This document shows, one piece after another, positions 8,751 to 39,123 of a DNA stretch of 39,919 nt. The position numbers and the translations under genes are program-made. Under the pieces are notes generated by a model. That model did not search any database. It had not been told where the DNA came from and saw only the letters and a program-made list of their open reading frames with translations. Each line of letters opens with the position of its first letter. Within the stretch, counting starts at the first letter, position 1. Source of the DNA: Escherichia phage EG1; the sequence record MG488277; one strand, 5' to 3'.

Positions 8751-9011
8751 ATGTTCCGACTTCACTTCAACAAAAGCCTTAAGAATTTCACGGTTCGTCG
8801 TGCTGACCGTTCAATCGTATGTGCGAGCGAACGCCGAGCTAAGTTACCTATTATTGGTGACACAGTTCCTTTGGCACCGAGCGTCCACATCATTATCACA
8901 CGTGGTGACTTTGAGAAAGCAATAGACAAGAAACGTCCGGTTCTTAACGTGGCAGTGACCCGCTTCCCGTTCGTCCGTCTGTTACTCAAACGAATCAAGG
9001 AGGTGTTCTGA
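8751..9011 (+). CDS. 1.6: gp1.6-like protein
   Basis: 86 aa ORF at the T7 gene 1.6 position. Confidence 0.75.
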
Positions 9012-9553
9012 TGTCTGGTTGCATAGCTTGCTTAGAGAAAGACGACCGTTATCCACACACCTGTAATAAAGGAGCTAACGATATGACCGAACGTGAACAA
9101 GAGATGATCATTAAGTTGATAGACAATAACGAAGGTCGTTCTGGTGACACGTATGGTTGCGGCCTGTTCTGCGCTGGAGTACCTTGTGGCGAGTGCCCCG
9201 TAACAAACGATGAGAACATTACCTTAGGTGAAATCCGAGCGATGGACCCACGTAAGTCTAAGCAGGAGAAACCAGAGGTAACTCCTACAGATGACCAACC
9301 TTCCACCGAGTCAATCGAAGGTGTCACGAAGCCATCTCATTATATGTTGTTCGACGACATTGAGGCTATCGAAGTGATTGCCCGTTCGATGACCCGTGAG
9401 CAGTTCAAAGGGTATTGCTTAGGGAACATCCTTAAGTACCGCCTACGTGCTGGTAAGAAGTCCGAACTGGCTTACTTAGAGAAAGACATGGCGAAAGCTG
9501 GCTTCTACGGTGAACTGTACGAGAAACATAAGGACAAGTGCTATGACGCTTAA
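9011..9553 (+). CDS. 1.7: gp1.7-like protein (nucleotide kinase in T7)
   Basis: 180 aa, SD aaggagg, Cys-rich N-terminus; position as T7 1.7. Confidence 0.8.
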   Translation: MSGCIACLEKDDRYPHTCNKGANDMTEREQEMIIKLIDNNEGRSGDTYGCGLFCAGVPCGECPVTNDENITLGEIRAMDPRKSKQEKPEVTPTDDQPSTESIEGVTKPSHYMLFDDIEAIEVIARSMTREQFKGYCLGNILKYRLRAGKKSELAYLEKDMAKAGFYGELYEKHKDKCYDA

Positions 9554-9650
9554 CGATGTTCTGTACTTCGGATTAATTTGTGCTGGTGTAGGTGCATTAC
9601 TTCGCTTAATGTATTGGGCCATAGAGGTGGAATATGGAAAAGCCAAGTGA
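9543..9650 (+). CDS. Small ORF at gene 1.8 position
   Basis: 35 aa MTLNDVLYFGLICAGVGALLRLMYWAIEVEYGKAK, overlaps end of 1.7; below ORF-track cutoff. Confidence 0.45.
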   Translation: MTLNDVLYFGLICAGVGALLRLMYWAIEVEYGKAK

Positions 9651-9663
9651 ATGGTGCCACAAA

Positions 9664-9946
<283 letters not shown>

Positions 9947-9949
<3 letters not shown>

Positions 9950-9969
9950 TACGACTCACTATAGGGAAG
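9947..9969 (+). promoter_or_regulatory. phi2.5: T7-RNAP promoter phi2.5
   Basis: taatacgactcactataGGGAAG. Confidence 0.9.
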
Positions 9970-10013
9970 ACTCCCTCTGAGAAACTAAACGAAACCTAAA
10001 GGAGATTAACATT

Positions 10014-10721
10014 ATGGCTAAGAAGATTTTCACCTCTGCGCTGGGTACTGCTGAGCCTTACGCGTACATCGCTAAGCCAGACTACGGTAACGAAGAGCGT
10101 GGCTTTGGGAACCCGCGTGGCATCTTTAAAGTTGACCTGACCATTCCCAACAAAGACCCGCGTTGTCAACGTATGGTCGATGAAATCGTGAAGTGTCACG
10201 AAGAGGCTTATGCTGCTGCCGTTGAGGAATATGAGGCCAACCCACCGGTAGTAGCTCGTGGTAAGAAGAAACCTATTGAACCTTATGAGGGAGACATGCC
10301 GTTCATTGATAATGGTGACGGTACTACGACCTTTAAGTTCAAGTGCTACGCTTCCTTCCAAGACAAGAAGACCAAAGAGACCAAGCACATCAATCTGGTT
10401 GTGGTTGACTCCAAAGGTAAGAAGATGGAAGACGTGCCGATCATTGGTGGCGGCTCCAAGCTGAAAGTCAAGTATTCGCTGGTCCCGTACAAGTGGAACA
10501 ACGCTGTAGGTGCAAGCGTTAAGCTGCAACTGGAATCCGTTATGTTGGTCGAACTGGCTACCTTTGGTGGCGGTGAGGACGATTGGGCTGATGAAGTTGA
10601 AGAGAACGGCTATGTTGCCTCTGGTTCTGCCAAAGCGAGCAAACCACGCGACGAAGAAAGCTGGGACGAAGACGACAGTGAGTCCTACGAAGAAGACGAA
10701 GACGAAGACGGAGACTTCTAA
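10014..10721 (+). CDS. 2.5: Single-stranded DNA-binding protein (gene 2.5)
   Basis: 235 aa with acidic C-terminal tail ending in F, as in T7 gp2.5. Confidence 0.95.
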   Translation: MAKKIFTSALGTAEPYAYIAKPDYGNEERGFGNPRGIFKVDLTIPNKDPRCQRMVDEIVKCHEEAYAAAVEEYEANPPVVARGKKKPIEPYEGDMPFIDNGDGTTTFKFKCYASFQDKKTKETKHINLVVVDSKGKKMEDVPIIGGGSKLKVKYSLVPYKWNNAVGASVKLQLESVMLVELATFGGGEDDWADEVEENGYVASGSAKASKPRDEESWDEDDSESYEEDEDEDGDF

Positions 10722-11177
10722 GTGGCTGGCGCATACGCTGCGCGTGGAATCAGAAAGGTCGGGACATTTCGTTCCGGCCTAGAAGATAAAGTCTCTAAGC
10801 AGCTAGAGGGTAAGGGCATTAAGTTCGACTATGAACTGTGGAAAATCCCTTACGTTGTCCCTGCGAGTAACCATGTCTACACTCCAGACTTCCTGCTGCC
10901 TAACGGAATCTTTATTGAAACCAAAGGTTTATGGGAGAGTGACGACCGAAAGAAACACTTACTGATTCGCGAACAGTTTCCCGAACTGGACATCCGTCTG
11001 GTATTCTCAAGCTCACGCACAAAGCTGTATAAAGGGTCTCCGACCAGTTACGGTGAGTGGTGCGAGAAGCACGGCATACTGTTTGCTGACAAATTAATTC
11101 CGGTAGAATGGCTCAAAGAACCTAAAAAGGAGGTGCCATTTGACAAGTTAAAGCAATCTAAGGGAGGAAAGAAATAA
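10722..11177 (+). CDS. 3: Endonuclease I, Holliday-junction resolvase (gene 3)
   Basis: 151 aa ...GIRKVGTFRSGLEDKVSKQLEGKGIKF...PDFLLPNGIFIETKGLW...; apparent GTG start directly after gene 2.5 stop. Confidence 0.9.
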   Translation: MAGAYAARGIRKVGTFRSGLEDKVSKQLEGKGIKFDYELWKIPYVVPASNHVYTPDFLLPNGIFIETKGLWESDDRKKHLLIREQFPELDIRLVFSSSRTKLYKGSPTSYGEWCEKHGILFADKLIPVEWLKEPKKEVPFDKLKQSKGGKK

Positions 11178-11632
11178 TGGCTCGTGTACAGTTTAAACCG
11201 CGTGAATCTACTGACGCAATCTTTGTCCACTGCTCAGCAACTAAACCTAACCAGAACGTAGGTGTCCGTGAGATTCGCCAGTGGCATAAAGAGCAGGGTT
11301 GGCTCGATGTCGGGTATCACTTTATCATCAAGCGCGATGGTACTGTAGAGGAAGGCCGAGACGAGATGGCTGTAGGTTCTCACGTTAAGGGCCACAACCA
11401 CAACTCAATCGGTGTCTGCCTTGTTGGTGGTATTGACGATAAAGGTAAGTTCGAAGCTAACTTTACGCCAGCACAAATGCAATCCCTCCGCTCACTGCTT
11501 GTCACACTACTGGCTAAGTATAAAGGCGCTGTTCTTCGAGCGCATCACGATGTGGCTCCGAAGGCTTGCCCTTCGTTCGACCTTAAGCGTTGGTGGGAGA
11601 CGAACGAACTGGTCACTTCTGACCGTGGCTAA
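11177..11632 (+). CDS. 3.5: N-acetylmuramoyl-L-alanine amidase / RNAP inhibitor lysozyme (gene 3.5)
   Basis: 151 aa MARVQFKPRESTDAIFVHCSATKPNQNVGVREIRQWH... Confidence 0.95.
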   Translation: MARVQFKPRESTDAIFVHCSATKPNQNVGVREIRQWHKEQGWLDVGYHFIIKRDGTVEEGRDEMAVGSHVKGHNHNSIGVCLVGGIDDKGKFEANFTPAQMQSLRSLLVTLLAKYKGAVLRAHHDVAPKACPSFDLKRWWETNELVTSDRG

Positions 11633-11633
11633 T

Positions 11634-11656
11634 TAATTGAACTCACTATAGGGAGA
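11634..11656 (+). promoter_or_regulatory. T7-RNAP promoter (phi3.8-type variant) directly upstream of gene 4
   Basis: taattgaactcactataGGGAGACCACAACGGTTTCCC. Confidence 0.8.
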
Positions 11657-11688
11657 CCACAACGGTTTCCCTTTGTTCGCAACGTTGA

Positions 11689-13404
<1,716 letters not shown>

Positions 13405-14451: not shown

Positions 14452-16608
14452 ATGATCGTTTCTGACATCGAAGCTAACGCCCTCTTAGAGAGCGTCACTA
14501 AGTTCCACTGCGGGGTTATCTACGACTACTCCACCGCTGAGTACGTAAGCTACCGTCCGAGTGACTTCGGTGCGTATCTGGATGCGCTGGAAGCCGAGGT
14601 TGCACGAGGCGGTCTTATTGTGTTTCACAACGGCCACAAGTATGACGTTCCTGCATTGACCAAACTGGCAAAGTTGCAATTGAACCGAGAGTTCCACCTT
14701 CCTCGTGAGAACTGTATCGACACACTTGTGTTGTCACGCTTGATTCACTCCAACCTGAAAGACACCGATATGGGTCTTCTGCGTTCCGGTAAGTTGCCCG
14801 GTAAACGCTTTGGGTCTCACGCTTTGGAGGCGTGGGGCTATCGCTTAGGTGAAATGAAGGGTGAATACAAGGATGACTTTAAGCGTATGCTTGAAGAGCA
14901 AGGTGAAGAATACGTTGACGGAATGGAATGGTGGAACTTCAACGAAGAGATGATGACCTATAACGTTCAGGACGTTGTGGTCACTAAGGCTCTCCTTGAG
15001 AAGCTGCTCTCTGACAAACATTACTTCCCTCCTGAGATTGACTTTACGGACGTAGGATACACTACGTTCTGGTCAGAATCCCTTGAGGCCGTTGACGTTG
15101 AACATCGCGCTGCGTGGCTACTCGCTAAGCAAGAGCGCAATGGATTCCCGTTTGACACGAAAGCAATCGAAGAGTTGTACGTAGAGTTAGCTGCTCGTCG
15201 CTCAGAGTTGCTGCGTAAGCTGACCGAAACGTTCGGCTCGTGGTATCAGCCTAAAGGTGGCACCGAAATGTTCTGCCATCCGAGGACTGGTAAGCCACTG
15301 CCTAAATACCCTCGCATTAAGACACCTAAAGTTGGTGGTATCTTTAAGAAGCCTAAGAACAAGGCACAACGAGAAGGCCGTGAGCCTTGCGAACTGGATA
15401 CCCGCGAGTACGTTGCTGGTGCCCCCTATACTCCGGTAGAGCACGTAGTGTTTAACCCTTCGTCTCGTGACCACATCCAGAAGAAACTCCAAGAGGCTGG
15501 ATGGGTCCCCACGAAGTACACCGATAAGGGTGCGCCTGTGGTGGACGATGAGGTCCTAGAGGGAGTAAAAGTAGATGACCCTGAGAAGCAAGCCGCTATC
15601 GATCTTATTAAAGAATACTTGATGATTCAGAAGCGAATCGGACAGTCTGCTGAGGGAGACAAGGCGTGGCTTCGTTACGTTGCTGAGGATGGTAAAATTC
15701 ATGGTTCTGTTAATCCCAACGGCGCTGTTACTGGGCGCGCTACTCACGCTTTCCCTAACCTTGCACAGATACCCGGTGTCCGCTCTCCTTATGGTGATCG
15801 GTGCCGCTCTGCTTTTGGCGCTGAACATCACCTAGACGGACTTACAGGTAAGCCTTGGGTTCAAGCTGGTATAGACGCCTCTGGTCTGGAGCTGCGATGC
15901 TTGGCCCACTTCATGGCTCGCTTTGACAACGGTGAGTATGCTCACGAGATTCTAAACGGTGACATCCACTGGAAGAACGCAATTGCTGCTGACTTAGCAC
16001 CAAACATTGCTCGTGATAAGCATAATAAGGAACACGACCTAATGCGTGATAACGCCAAGACGTTTATCTATGGGTTCCTCTATGGTGCTGGCGATGAGAA
16101 GACTGGTCAGATTGTAGGTGCTGGTAAAGAACGTGGTAAGGAACTCAAGAAGAAATTCCTTGAGAACACCCCAGCTATTGCTGCACTACGAGAGTCTATC
16201 CAACAGACACTTGTTGAGTCCTCTCAGTGGGTAGCTGGTGAACAGCAAGTCAAGTGGAAACGTCGCTGGATTAAAGGTCTGGATGGTCGTAAGGTACACG
16301 TCCGTAGTCCTCACGCTGCCCTGAATACCCTGCTGCAATCTGCTGGTGCTCTAATCTGCAAACTGTGGATTATCAAGACAGAAGAGATGCTCGTGGAGAA
16401 AGGCTTGAAGCATGGTTGGGATGGGGACTTTGCGTACATGGCATGGGTCCACGATGAGATTCAGGTAGGTTGTCGTACCGAAGAGATTGCTCAGGTGGTC
16501 ATTGAGACTGCACAGGAAGCGATGCGCTGGGTAGGAGACCACTGGAACTTCCGGTGTCTTCTGGATACCGAAGGTAAGATTGGTCCTAATTGGGCCGTAT
16601 GTCACTAA
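14452..16608 (+). CDS. 5: DNA polymerase (gene 5), family A with 3'-5' exonuclease and thioredoxin-binding loop
   Basis: 718 aa; [27 protein letters not shown]...; near-identical to T7 gp5 except a ~14-aa insertion before the O-helix. Confidence 0.97.
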
Positions 16609-16627
16609 TTCTAACAGGAGCCACTTT

Positions 16628-16855
16628 ATGGCATGGCGATATAGGATTCGAGAAGTCAGAATGACTACAGGTGAGACCTTATACTACCCACAGTTCCGTC
16701 ATGTGTGGCTCCCATTCTGGTGCCACTTTAGGGACTACCTAGAAGAACGTAAGGTGTCATTCACCTATTATTCTGATGCGCTTGAATTCGTTAATGAATG
16801 TAAATCAAATGATGAACCAGAAGTAAAGCAGGTTGTAAGAAACCACTATCTTTAA
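16628..16855 (+). CDS. Hypothetical protein at gene 5.3 position
   Basis: 75 aa from ATG 16628 (MAWRYRIREVRMTTGETLYYPQFRHVW...), SD caggag; shorter than T7 gp5.3. Confidence 0.55.
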   Translation: MAWRYRIREVRMTTGETLYYPQFRHVWLPFWCHFRDYLEERKVSFTYYSDALEFVNECKSNDEPEVKQVVRNHYL

Positions 16856-19551: not shown

Positions 19552-19869
19552 ATGGGTAAGAAAATTAAGAAGGCCGTGAAGAGAGTCACTAAGTCAGTTA
19601 AGAAAGCCGTGAAGAAAGTTACCAAGGAAGTGACCCGTCCGGTTAAACAGATTGCTGGTGGTCTGGCTGGTGGCGCTGGTGAAGCGCAGGTAGTTGAAGT
19701 TCCACAGGCAGCTGCTGCAACTCCTGCTGCACAGATTGTTGACGTACCTGAGAAAGAGGTCTCCACTGAGGACGAAGCACAGACCGAAAGCGGACGTAAG
19801 AAAGCCCGTGCTGGCGGTAAGAAGTCCTTAAGTGTGGCTCGTAGCTCCGGTGGCGGCATAAATATTTAA
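19552..19869 (+). CDS. 7.3: gp7.3 tail/adsorption protein
   Basis: 105 aa, Lys/Ala/Val-rich. Confidence 0.85.
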   Translation: MGKKIKKAVKRVTKSVKKAVKKVTKEVTRPVKQIAGGLAGGAGEAQVVEVPQAAAATPAAQIVDVPEKEVSTEDEAQTESGRKKARAGGKKSLSVARSSGGGINI

Positions 19870-19883
19870 ACAGGAGGTGACAC

Positions 19884-21494
19884 ATGGCTGAGAAGCGCAC
19901 AGGTCTAGCCGAGGAAGGAGCAAAGTCGGTCTATGAGCGATTGAAGAACGACCGTGCTCCATATGAGACTCGCGCCCAAAACTGCGCTCAGTACACCATT
20001 CCGTCCCTCTTCCCTAAGGACTCCGACAACGCATCTACAGACTACACAACTCCGTGGCAAGCTGTAGGTGCTCGCGGTCTCAATAACTTGGCCTCTAAGC
20101 TCATGCTGGCTCTCTTCCCGATGCAAACGTGGATGAAACTGACCATCTCTGAGTTTGAGGCCAAACAGTTACTGGATGACCCCGATGGACTCGCTAAGGT
20201 TGATGAGGGCCTCTCAATGGTAGAGCGTATCATCATGAACTACATTGAGTCTAACAGCTACCGAGTGACCCTCTTTGAGGCGCTCAAGCAGTTAGTCGTT
20301 GCTGGTAACGTCCTACTGTATCTACCGGAACCGGAAGGCTCTAACTACAACCCCATGAAGCTGTACCGATTGTCTTCTTATGTGGTCCAACGAGACGCAT
20401 TCGGCAACGTTCTGCAAATGGTGACTCGCGACCAGATAGCTTTCGGGGCACTCCCTGAGGACATACGTAATGCTGTAGAAGGTCAAGGTGGTGAGAAGAA
20501 ACCTGATGAGACCATCGACGTGTACACCCACATCTATCTGGATGAGGACTCAGGTGAATACCTCCGATACGAAGAGGTAGAGGGTATGGAAGTACAAGGC
20601 TCCGATGGGTCTTACCCTAAAGAGGCTTGTCCGTACATCCCGATTCGAATGGTTCGACTAGATGGTGAATCCTACGGTCGTTCGTACATTGAGGAATACC
20701 TCGGTGACTTACGGTCCCTTGAGAATCTCCAAGAAGCTATCGTTAAGATGTCCATGATTAGCTCTAAGGTTATCGGCTTAGTGAATCCTGCTGGTATTAC
20801 CCAGCCACGCCGACTTACTAAAGCTCAGACTGGTGACTTCGTTACCGGTCGTCCAGAAGACATCTCATTCCTACAGCTGGAGAAGCAAGCAGACTTCACT
20901 GTGGCTAAGGCCGTCAGTGACGCTATCGAGGCTCGACTTTCGTTTGCCTTCATGTTGAACTCTGCGGTTCAGCGCACTGGTGAACGTGTGACCGCCGAAG
21001 AGATTCGGTACGTTGCGTCAGAACTTGAAGATACTTTAGGTGGTGTCTACTCTATCCTTTCTCAAGAATTACAATTGCCTCTGGTACGAGTGCTATTGAA
21101 GCAACTACAAGCCACGCAACAGATTCCTGAGTTACCTAAGGAAGCAGTAGAGCCAACTATTAGTACAGGTCTGGAAGCAATCGGTCGTGGTCAAGACCTT
21201 GATAAACTGGAACGCTGTGTCTCTGCATGGGCTGCTCTGGCCCCTATGCGTGATGACCCAGATATTAACCTTGCGATGATTAAGTTACGCATTGCTAACG
21301 CTATCGGCATTGACACTTCTGGTATCCTTCTTACAGAAGAGCAGAAGCAACAGAAGATGGCTCAACAGTCTGTGCAAATGGGTATGGATAATGGTGCTGC
21401 TGCGCTTGGGCAAGGTATGGCTGCACAGGCTACAGCTTCACCTGAGGCTATGGCTGCTGCCGCTGATTCCGTGGGTTTACAGCCGGGAATTTAA
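19884..21494 (+). CDS. 8: Head-tail connector (portal) protein (gene 8)
   Basis: 536 aa, same length as T7 gp8. Confidence 0.95.
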   Translation: MAEKRTGLAEEGAKSVYERLKNDRAPYETRAQNCAQYTIPSLFPKDSDNASTDYTTPWQAVGARGLNNLASKLMLALFPMQTWMKLTISEFEAKQLLDDPDGLAKVDEGLSMVERIIMNYIESNSYRVTLFEALKQLVVAGNVLLYLPEPEGSNYNPMKLYRLSSYVVQRDAFGNVLQMVTRDQIAFGALPEDIRNAVEGQGGEKKPDETIDVYTHIYLDEDSGEYLRYEEVEGMEVQGSDGSYPKEACPYIPIRMVRLDGESYGRSYIEEYLGDLRSLENLQEAIVKMSMISSKVIGLVNPAGITQPRRLTKAQTGDFVTGRPEDISFLQLEKQADFTVAKAVSDAIEARLSFAFMLNSAVQRTGERVTAEEIRYVASELEDTLGGVYSILSQELQLPLVRVLLKQLQATQQIPELPKEAVEPTISTGLEAIGRGQDLDKLERCVSAWAALAPMRDDPDINLAMIKLRIANAIGIDTSGILLTEEQKQQKMAQQSVQMGMDNGAAALGQGMAAQATASPEAMAAAADSVGLQPGI

Positions 21495-37354: not shown

Positions 37355-39123
37355 GGAAAGGTACATCCGCTCAGTCCAATCGTAATGCGCTCGTTGTGGC
37401 GCAACTAAAGGGCGACTTCGTGGCGTTCCTGTTCGTCTTATGGAAGGCGTTAAATCTACCAGTGCCCACTAAGTGCCAAATAGACATGGCTAAGGTGCTG
37501 GCGAATGGGGACAACAAGAAGTTCATCCTACAGGCTTTCCGTGGTATCGGTAAGTCATTCATCACCTGTGCGTTCGTTGTGTGGTCATTATGGAGAGACC
37601 CTCAGTTGAAGATACTTATCGTATCAGCCTCTAAGGAACGTGCAGACGCTAACTCCATATTCATCAAGAACATCATTGACCTACTGCCGTTTCTCAGTGA
37701 GTTGAAGCCGAGACCCGGACAGCGTGACTCTGTGATTAGTTTTGATGTTGGTCCTGCTAGTCCTGACCACTCGCCTAGTGTGAAATCAGTGGGTATCACC
37801 GGCCAGTTAACTGGTAGCCGTGCTGATATTATCATTGCGGATGACGTTGAGATTCCGTCTAACAGTGCGACTATGGGTGCCCGTGAGAAGCTATGGACTC
37901 TCGTTCAGGAGTTCGCTGCATTACTTAAACCACTGCCTTCTTCTCGTGTTATCTATCTTGGTACACCTCAAACTGAGATGACTCTCTATAAGGAACTTGA
38001 AGATAACCGTGGGTACACCACTATCATCTGGCCTGCTCTATACCCAAGGACTCGTGAGGAGAACCTCTACTACTCTCAGCGTCTGGCCCCAATGCTCCGT
38101 GCGGAGTACGAGGAGAATCCTGAGGCGCTGGCTGGTACTCCTACAGACCCTGTTCGATTCGACAGAGACGACCTACGTGAGCGTGAGTTGGAATACGGTA
38201 AGGCTGGCTTTACGTTACAGTTCATGCTTAACCCGAACCTGAGTGATGCCGAGAAGTACCCTCTGAGGCTCCGTGACGCTATCGTAGCGGCCTTAGACTT
38301 AGAGAAAGCACCAATGCATTACCAGTGGCTTCCGAACCGTCAGAACATCATTGAGGACCTTCCTAACGTGGGTCTTAAGGGTGATGACCTGCATACATAC
38401 CATGAGTGCTCAAATAACTCTGGTCAGTATCAGCAGAAGATTCTGGTCATTGACCCCAGTGGTCGCGGTAAGGACGAAACAGGTTACGCTGTGCTGTATA
38501 CCCTCAACGGTTACATCTACCTCATGGAAGCTGGTGGTTTCCGTGATGGTTACTCCGATAAGACCCTTGAGCTACTCGCTAAGAAAGCTAAGCAATGGGG
38601 AGTCCAGACGGTTGTCTATGAGAGTAACTTCGGTGACGGTATGTTTGGTAAGGTATTCAGTCCTATCCTGCTAAAACACCACAACTGTGCTATGGAAGAG
38701 ATTCGTGCTCGTGGTATGAAGGAGATGCGCATTTGTGATACCCTTGAGCCAGTCATGCAGACTCACCGCCTTGTCATTCGCGATGAGGTCATTCGGGCAG
38801 ACTATCAGTCCGCTCGCGATGTAGACGGTAAGCATGACGTTAAGTATTCACTATTCTACCAGATGACTCGTATCACTCGTGAGAAAGGCGCTCTGGCACA
38901 CGATGACCGATTGGATGCCCTTGCGTTAGGCATTGAGTATCTCCGTGAGTCCATGCAGTTGGATTCCGTTAAGGTCGAAGGTGAAGTGCTTGCTGACTTC
39001 CTTGAAGAACACATGATGCGTCCTACGGTCTCTGCTACGCATATCATTGAGATGTCTGTAGGAGGAGTTGATGTGTACTCTGAGGACGATGAGGGATACG
39101 GTACATCTTTCATTGAGTGGTGA
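37351..39123 (+). CDS. 19: Terminase large subunit (gene 19)
   Basis: 590 aa. Confidence 0.95.
37997..38242 (+). CDS. Embedded alternative-frame ORF at the T7 gene 19.2 position
   Basis: 81-aa ORF whose start sits at the T7 19.2 start after applying the local offset; no independent support. Confidence 0.25.

Follow-up and report, generated by a model that had tools for sequence, protein, structure and literature searches.

An unoccupied gene 2.5/gene 3 junction in Escherichia phage EG1 and a probably coupled GTG start for endonuclease I

In Escherichia phage EG1 (MG488277), the gene for endonuclease I, gene 3, begins at a GTG codon directly behind the stop codon of gene 2.5, at the place where bacteriophage T7 carries gene 2.8. 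Analysis of the whole 39,919-nt stretch of DNA from this phage (the window) and of its relatives leads us to an explanation that is very probably correct as a whole: the junction would be unoccupied, GUG would be the only start codon of endonuclease I, output of the enzyme would be low and coupled to gene 2.5, and T7 would present the derived state. The window is a T7-group phage genome of the genus Teseptimavirus, and the record nearest to it is that of Yersinia phage vB_YenP_WW2, at 93.6% identity across 95% of the first 25 kb; the collection searched contains none above the 90–95% identity band. The features of the junction and its surroundings are collected in Table 1.

Table 1. Features at and around the gene 2.5/gene 3 junction of the window
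Feature	Position	Strand	Evidence and remarks
Phage promoter phi2.5, T7-type	9947..9965	+	Perfect match to TAATACGACTCACTATAGG; position as annotated in 13a and T7
Gene 2.5, single-stranded DNA-binding protein, 235 aa	10014..10721	+	Pfam SBB_T7 PF21265, 3e-86
GGAG, Shine-Dalgarno-like	10710..10713	+	Inside the Asp-Gly-Asp-Phe codons of gene 2.5; 8-nt spacer to GTG
Empty insertion site of gene 2.8-family HNH homing endonucleases, TAA GTG GCTGGCGCATACGCTGCGCGTGG	10719..10747	+	Comparative; extent inferred
Gene 3, endonuclease I (Holliday-junction resolvase), 151 aa	10722..11177	+	PF05367, 6.7e-82; 2PFJ, 8.4e-87
Gene 3.5 (amidase/lysozyme)	11177..11632	+	ATG overlaps the gene 3 stop as TAATG
Next phage promoter, phi3.8 equivalent	11634..11652	+	3 mismatches; same relative place in the annotation of 13a and T7

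The list of open reading frames (ORFs) places the start of gene 2.5 at ATG 10014 and its stop at TAA 10719–10721. Its product scores 287.7 bits in a profile search with PF21265, against a cut-off of 27, and is 94% identical with gp2.5 of phage 13a. It ends in an acidic C-terminal tail with a terminal Phe (...EDEDEDGDF; ...SYEEDEDEDGDF), as is characteristic of single-stranded DNA-binding proteins of the T7 gp2.5 type. The first codon after the stop, GTG 10722, opens gene 3, which closes at TAA 11175–11177. The spacer between the two genes is 0 nt (TAA/GTG, the stroke marking the gene boundary), and the letters around 10700–10730 read GAC GGA GAC TTC TAA GTG GCT GGC GCA. The two genes share one frame, with 10014, 10719 and 10722 in the same codon phase, and a single TAA divides them. 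A sequence-only reading of this DNA had pointed out that gene 2.8 is missing and that the GTG of gene 3 abuts the gene 2.5 TAA, as the coordinates in the sequence and the ORF list bear out. Its placing of GGAG about 10 nt upstream of the GTG is acceptable for an actual spacer of 8 nt. The GGAG is a weak Shine-Dalgarno (SD) sequence, at −6.6 kcal/mol with the anti-SD; the SD of gene 3.5, AAGGGAGG, is strong at −11.3 kcal/mol.

Comparison with other phages reveals that this arrangement is already known, being the annotated norm in T7 relatives, and that it represents no new kind of element. In 13a (EU734174), phiA1122 (NC_004777) and WW2 (OP161219), the annotated gene 3 is 456 nt long and its first nucleotide directly follows the gene 2.5 stop; the junction has the same sequence, TAAGTGGCTGGC. 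All 16 close loci, these three and 13 from IMG/VR, have an identical TAA/GTG junction, and we conclude that it is no feature of chance or of assembly. A 651-nt query spanning the junction matched 245 phage records, and the alignment crosses the junction in one piece in all 60 of the records listed. It is these 60 one-piece matches that constitute the GenBank evidence; the 84 records at a coverage of at least 80% could include joined two-piece matches to T7. Within IMG/VR, the exact pattern of the empty T7-group junction, TTCTAAGTGGCTGGCRCATAYGC (TAAGTGGCTGG...), occurs in 14 contigs and that of the T3-type TAATG junction in 7, while that of the T7 2.5/2.8 junction occurs in 1, T7 itself. Among 80 IMG/VR loci with relatives of gp3, the closest 13 (L005–L017) all have TAA/GTG and L018 has TAA/ATG; an overlap of one base, TAATG, is found in the T3-like group and several others, and a few loci have 2-nt spacers.

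On these comparisons, the junction of the window is the ordinary unoccupied 2.5/3 form of T7-group phages, to which T7 is the exception. One of the two origins entertained in the sequence-only reading, an ancestral state lacking 2.8, is thereby supported, as the relatives show the same arrangement as the common state (13a, phiA1122 and WW2; 60 of 60 listed GenBank records; 14 contigs against 1 in IMG/VR; T3-like phages without 2.8). The empty junction is common and, by parsimony from this distribution, probably ancestral. The lineage of the window could once have held an endonuclease gene and then have had the empty allele restored through recombination with a phage lacking such a gene.

The layout that had been given for T7, with a gene 2.8 of ~420 bp between genes 2.5 and 3 and the start of gene 3 inside it, matches the annotation of NC_001604. 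There, gene 2.5 spans 9158–9856, gene 2.8 9857–10276 (420 bp) and gene 3 10257–10706, gene 3 beginning 20 nt inside gene 2.8. In T7, the GTG that opens gene 2.8 immediately adjoins the TAA of gene 2.5, and the letters before it are identical to those of the window: GACGAAGACGGAGACTTCTAA GTG G... Since T7 starts gene 2.8 at this shared GTG, behind the shared TAA, it represents the insertion state, and since both the GTG and the GGAG are shared by T7 and the window, both belong to the junction and are used in T7 by the inserted gene. That gene 2.8 shares the junction GTG had been missed earlier. T7 gp2.8 matches HNH_3 (PF13392) and a zinc-binding loop homing-endonuclease family, and is His-Me homing-endonuclease-like; proteins at least 95% identical to it are confined to 112 records, and the ones listed are all from T7. 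For its gene 3, T7 has a new SD, AAGGGAGG (−11.3 kcal/mol), and an ATG, both situated within the 3′ end of gene 2.8.

Inserts of 395–427 nt, encoding a gp2.8 homologue (37–73% identical), are found at the same place in loci L026, L036, L037 and L041, where the flanking gp3 proteins are 70–90% identical. Compared with the genes on either side, the insert is far more diverged and patchier in distribution, which fits a mobile homing-endonuclease gene. Its start follows the local junction style, with TAA/ATG in L026, TAATG in L036 and L037 and a TTGA overlap in L041, and each of the four inserts supplies a strong SD and an ATG for gene 3. All five occupied genomes have another version of the ~7 codons at the head of gene 3, one codon shorter (MAGYGAKG...), and in T7 and L041 these altered codons overlap the end of the endonuclease ORF. 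We conclude from the altered 5′ end that the cassette replaces the native 5′ end of gene 3. A further locus, L040, has 45 nt between genes 2.5 and 3, encoding the endonuclease C-terminal ...SQSTISNIKGGK together with a AAGGGAGG SD and an ATG; judged by what it encodes, this is a genuine remnant of an endonuclease gene. In the window, a tblastn search with T7 gp2.8 found no gp2.8-like sequence (best E 0.53), and neither a displaced copy of gene 2.8 nor any other T7-group homing endonuclease was found. An HNH_3-type ORF between genes 2.5 and 3 is absent, and the window presents an empty site with no member of the gene 2.8 family. gp2.8 is absent from a proteomics paper on T7 (PMC5592923), where it was sought as a proxy for initiation at the same GTG, and a search of the literature on gene 2.8/gp2.8, phiA1122 and Teseptimavirus HNH proteins found nothing on the gp2.8 cleavage site or on gene 3 coupling.

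The identity of the gene 3 product is clear. The PF05367 match scores 272.9 bits against a cut-off of 29.1 and places residues 1–149 on positions 1–148 of the 149 in the profile, and the T7 endonuclease I structure 2PFJ is matched over residues 4–151. The protein is identical to 13a gp3 at 151 of 151 residues, and the 13a annotation likewise begins the gene at this GTG. We take the catalytic residues of T7 endonuclease I to be Glu20, Asp55, Glu65 and Lys67 (T7 numbering). They are retained in gp3 of the window, in which each of the motifs GLEDK, TPDF and ETKG is conserved; the 2PFJ chain has Ala at the Lys position. A scan of the whole gene 3 ORF revealed no in-frame ATG, and its in-frame ATG/GTG/TTG codons are just GTG 10722 and GTG 11133 (codon 138). 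The proposal that gene 3 starts at GTG was thus checked against a downstream in-frame ATG, and because none exists, GTG 10722 is the only usable start. At the aligned position, all the T7-like phages have GTG, and T3-like phages and L018 have ATG. In several GenBank records, the gene 3 ORF is labelled 'hypothetical' or left unannotated; in such genomes, the annotation should be corrected and gene 3 called from the GTG.

Matches to the T7 promoter consensus number 16 in the window, against 0.01 expected by chance. Between the promoters at 9947 and 11634, no further promoter (σ70 included) or terminator stands above shuffled expectation. Genes 2.5, 3 and 3.5 are predicted to lie on one phi2.5-driven transcript, the end of which would be marked by the 11634 promoter. 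Genes 2.5 and 3 have the geometry of a coupled pair, being co-oriented on the same predicted transcript with a stop-start distance within the range of −4 to a few nt. The fold of 120 nt around the junction is no different from that of shuffled sequences (z = −1.0, MFE frequency 1%), giving no sign of a structured ribosome-binding site (RBS) there; coupling by unmasking or unfolding of a structured RBS was dropped on this ground.

The other origin entertained for the junction is a precise deletion scar, in which a T7-like ancestor with gene 2.8 lost exactly the ~400-bp gene. T7 and the window are identical up to and including TAAGTGG, and the 400-bp difference is bounded by GTGG/ATGG, in principle allowing a short-homology deletion. 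Moreover, T7 without three homing endonucleases is viable and is told from the wild type by PCR across the gp2.8 region (bioRxiv 10.1101/2025.09.07.674715). Excision from a T7-type genome would, however, leave the T7 gene 3 5′ end, GCAGGTTACGGCGCTAAAGG, one codon shorter, whereas the 5′ end in the window, GCTGGCGCATACGCTGCGCGTGG, is identical to that of T3-like phages, which never show 2.8. The empty junction is also the majority form in both collections. We reject the scar because the T7-type 5′ end of gene 3 is missing, because the window has nothing like the L040 remnant with its 45 nt, strong SD and ATG, and because gp2.8-like sequence is found nowhere in the window; an origin by such a deletion is very unlikely. 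It is less probable still, to the point of being negligible, that the true start of gene 3 lies further downstream and that the GTG is fortuitous. Nothing speaks for this except the general rarity of GTG starts, which account for 5 of 55 CDS in 13a and for 3 among the mapped orthologues of the window (genes 3, 6.3 and 19.2). Against it, there is no in-frame ATG, the next in-frame GTG/TTG comes only at codon 138, the Pfam model and 2PFJ align from residues 1–4 on, and the aligned codon in relatives is itself a start, ATG or GTG.

As to how the GUG is reached by ribosomes, the comparisons incline us towards translational coupling to gene 2.5 as a substantial contributor to gene 3 expression. For termination-reinitiation to couple two genes, they must overlap or lie very close together, and an SD is not indispensable (PMC10666635, PMC12548453). 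Where gene 3 has an RBS of its own, the SD strength is −9 to −11.3 kcal/mol, versus −6.6 kcal/mol in the window. Relatives with the same adjacency (L025, L027, L028, L031 and L038) have essentially no SD, at 0.3 to −1.9 kcal/mol, so that gene 3 of these TAATG phages would hardly be initiated except by ribosomes coming from gene 2.5. Taken together, the lack of any spacer, the weakness of the SD, the single predicted transcription unit and these SD-less relatives make coupling plausible. Free 30S subunits might instead bind GGAG...GUG de novo, with the adjacency reflecting genome compaction only. The GGAG with its 8-nt spacer is a usable though weak SD in a region without predicted structure, and GGA, a minority codon that makes up 13% of Gly codons in 14 large genes and 2 of 20 in gene 2.5, is retained at the SD position in the window, in T7 and in 15 of 16 close relatives, a hint that the SD matters. 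This conservation is among close kin, however, and may be plain inheritance; a weak SD with GUG is a poor site for de novo initiation, the SD-less relatives must nevertheless express gene 3, and zero spacing is the geometry of the most efficient reinitiation (PMC10666635). We therefore regard independent initiation as somewhat unlikely to be the explanation, while noting that it and coupling are not mutually exclusive. The frame shared by genes 2.5 and 3, conserved in all TAAGTG-type genomes, would also be compatible with read-through of the stop codon to give a gp2.5-gp3 fusion as the functional form. The shared frame is not conserved beyond these genomes, the TAATG relatives (T3-like and other) having different frames and others 2-nt spacers, and a fusion would bury the conserved Phe with which gp2.5 ends in all relatives. 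Little read-through is expected at UAA-G in E. coli, and we consider a functional fusion to be scarcely credible.

Returning to the coupled start at an unoccupied junction, we envisage the following. Translation of gene 3 in the window would begin at a single start, GUG 10722, directly behind the gene 2.5 UAA, with the GGAG lying in the acidic-tail codons 8 nt upstream. Some of the ribosomes finishing gp2.5 most likely reinitiate at the adjacent GUG, helped by the GGAG, and the result would be little endonuclease I, made in proportion to the synthesis of gp2.5. The T7 state would be derived from this one by insertion of a free-standing HNH homing-endonuclease gene of ~400 bp, gene 2.8, just after the start codon. 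The inserted gene would have appropriated the GTG and GGAG already present and used them for its own translation. Gene 3, in turn, would have received from the 3′ end of the insert a strong SD, an ATG and new codons in place of its first ~7. More tentatively, TAA GTG GCTGGCGCATACGCTGCGCGTGG may be the homing site of the gene 2.8 family, a possibility in which the cassette hijacks the coupled start and SD and installs a strong SD and ATG for gene 3. If so, gain of the endonuclease gene would also rewire the dosage of a toxic resolvase, and in a mixed infection with T7 the phage of the window would act as recipient and suffer marker exclusion in the gene 3 region. T7-like and T3-like phages are identical in the first 22 nt of gene 3. 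This was considered as a mark of a conserved target site and rejected as evidence, the whole gene being ~90% conserved.

As a discovery, the junction carries little weight, since among T7 relatives only the textbook phage T7 deviates. What it offers is one resolvase gene found in nature under two kinds of start, a GUG that is weak and probably coupled, and a strong, independent ATG supplied by a selfish endonuclease gene. Such a contrast could help to show how nearby genes change in expression when a homing-endonuclease gene inserts.

Among the named relatives, 13a and phiA1122 resemble the window in having TAA/GTG, a 456-nt gene 3, the same GGAG and no gene 2.8. Unlike the window, they harbour further genes for homing endonucleases, namely 3.8, 7.7, one lying inside gene 5 and, between genes 3 and 3.5, an HNH gene. 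The acidic tail of gp2.5 is longer in the window than in 13a or WW2, with one extra GAAGAC (Glu-Asp) unit relative to WW2. T7 has the gene 2.5 tail, GGAG, TAA/GTG, flanking genes and promoters in common with the window, but there the GTG opens a 139-aa HNH gene, 2.8, the ATG of gene 3 lies 400 nt further on, and gp3 begins MAGYGAKG rather than MAGAYAARG. T3 (NC_003298), like the window, lacks 2.8 and has genes 2.5 and 3 adjacent (8888–9586 and 9586–10044), and T3-like gene 3 shares the first codons GCTGGCGCATACGCTGCGCG with the window. The T3 junction is nevertheless a TAATG 1-nt overlap with an ATG start in a different frame, compared with which the TAAGTG of the window has one extra base.

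Beyond the T7 group, the junction may be set beside gene pairs for which coupling was shown experimentally, namely trpE/trpD at −1 nt and galT/galK and rplK/rplA at +3 nt (PMC12548453). As in the window, these pairs are co-oriented on one mRNA, with stop and start within a few nt and the downstream RBS in the upstream CDS; in the window, the coupling is predicted and the start codon is GUG. The occupied relatives recall free-standing homing-endonuclease genes that spread by intronless homing, with a patchy HNH homologue at one exact site and an altered flank in the occupied alleles; of such a pair of alleles, the window represents the empty one.

No homologue of any of seven homing-endonuclease genes carried by close relatives of the phage could be detected by tblastn in the whole window (best E-value 0.03), and this genome looks unusually free of such genes. 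The queries were T7 gene 2.8, three HNH genes of phiA1122 and, from phage 13a, genes 3.8 and 7.7 together with the endonuclease inside gene 5. The absence applies to the window as a whole and, by name, to the 71-nt gap between genes 3.5 and 4 (11632-11704), the gap of about 35 nt between genes 7.3 and 8 (19848-19884) and 14452-16608. Genes 3 and 3.5 overlap at TAATG, with the strong SD AAGGGAGG, and the spacing is thus 0 or -1 nt throughout the three-gene phi2.5 unit.

Table. Features of the window
Feature	Window position	Location	Basis
Acidic tail of gp2.5, GAAGAC (Glu-Asp) repeats	10683-10709		
10-bp predicted hairpin, AGGUCGGGAC-AUUUC-GUUCCGGCCU	10756-10780	inside gene 3, codons 12-20	RNA fold
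TAATG overlap	11173-11179	gene 3/gene 3.5	
91-aa ORF, TTG start	16580-16855	between gene 5 and gene 5.5	

A true deletion remnant is found in the IMG/VR locus L040, where genes 2.5 and 3 are separated by a spacer of 45 nt (1956-2000). Of a 2.8-family endonuclease gene this spacer preserves the motif coding for the C-terminus (..SQSTISNIKGGK) along with the strong SD and ATG, the gene itself being missing. This is the same kind of scar that the sequence-only reading had suspected for the window. The spacer of four more distant relatives (L044 and L046-L048, at about 1925-1976) opens with TAAGTGACACCAATGGCTGGCC, which looks like a vestige of a former adjacent gene 3 start; there follow a terminator-like GGCTGGCC-TTCG-GGCTGGCC hairpin with a U-run and then a new AAGGAGG SD and ATG. 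In the 44,911-bp contig IMGVR_UViG_2974600192_000001, the source of loci L019, L096 and L103, the T7-type TAAGTGGCTGG and T3-type TAATGGCTGG sequences occur together and therefore place two 2.5/3 junctions on one contig; its assembly is probably chimeric or concatenated.

The hairpin predicted within gene 3 is present in the MFE fold and in the centroid fold alike. When 23 different gene 3 sequences of relatives are compared, pairing is kept in 84.8% of cells, compared with 31-55% when the partners are slid, and both-sided changes occur at four pairs. Because the modelled structure was taken from the window sequence itself and the site consists of conserved codons, the hairpin could be a by-product of coding.

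The start codon of gene 19 must lie elsewhere in the window than in the 13a annotation, since the GTG annotated there aligns with ACA at 37363. The acidic tail of gp2.5 has one GAAGAC unit more than that of WW2, which accounts for the 6-nt length differences among the BLAST matches (645 versus 651 nt); the protein comprises 235 residues, compared with 232 in T7 and 13a. The position of the 91-aa ORF matches that occupied in T7 by gene 5.3.
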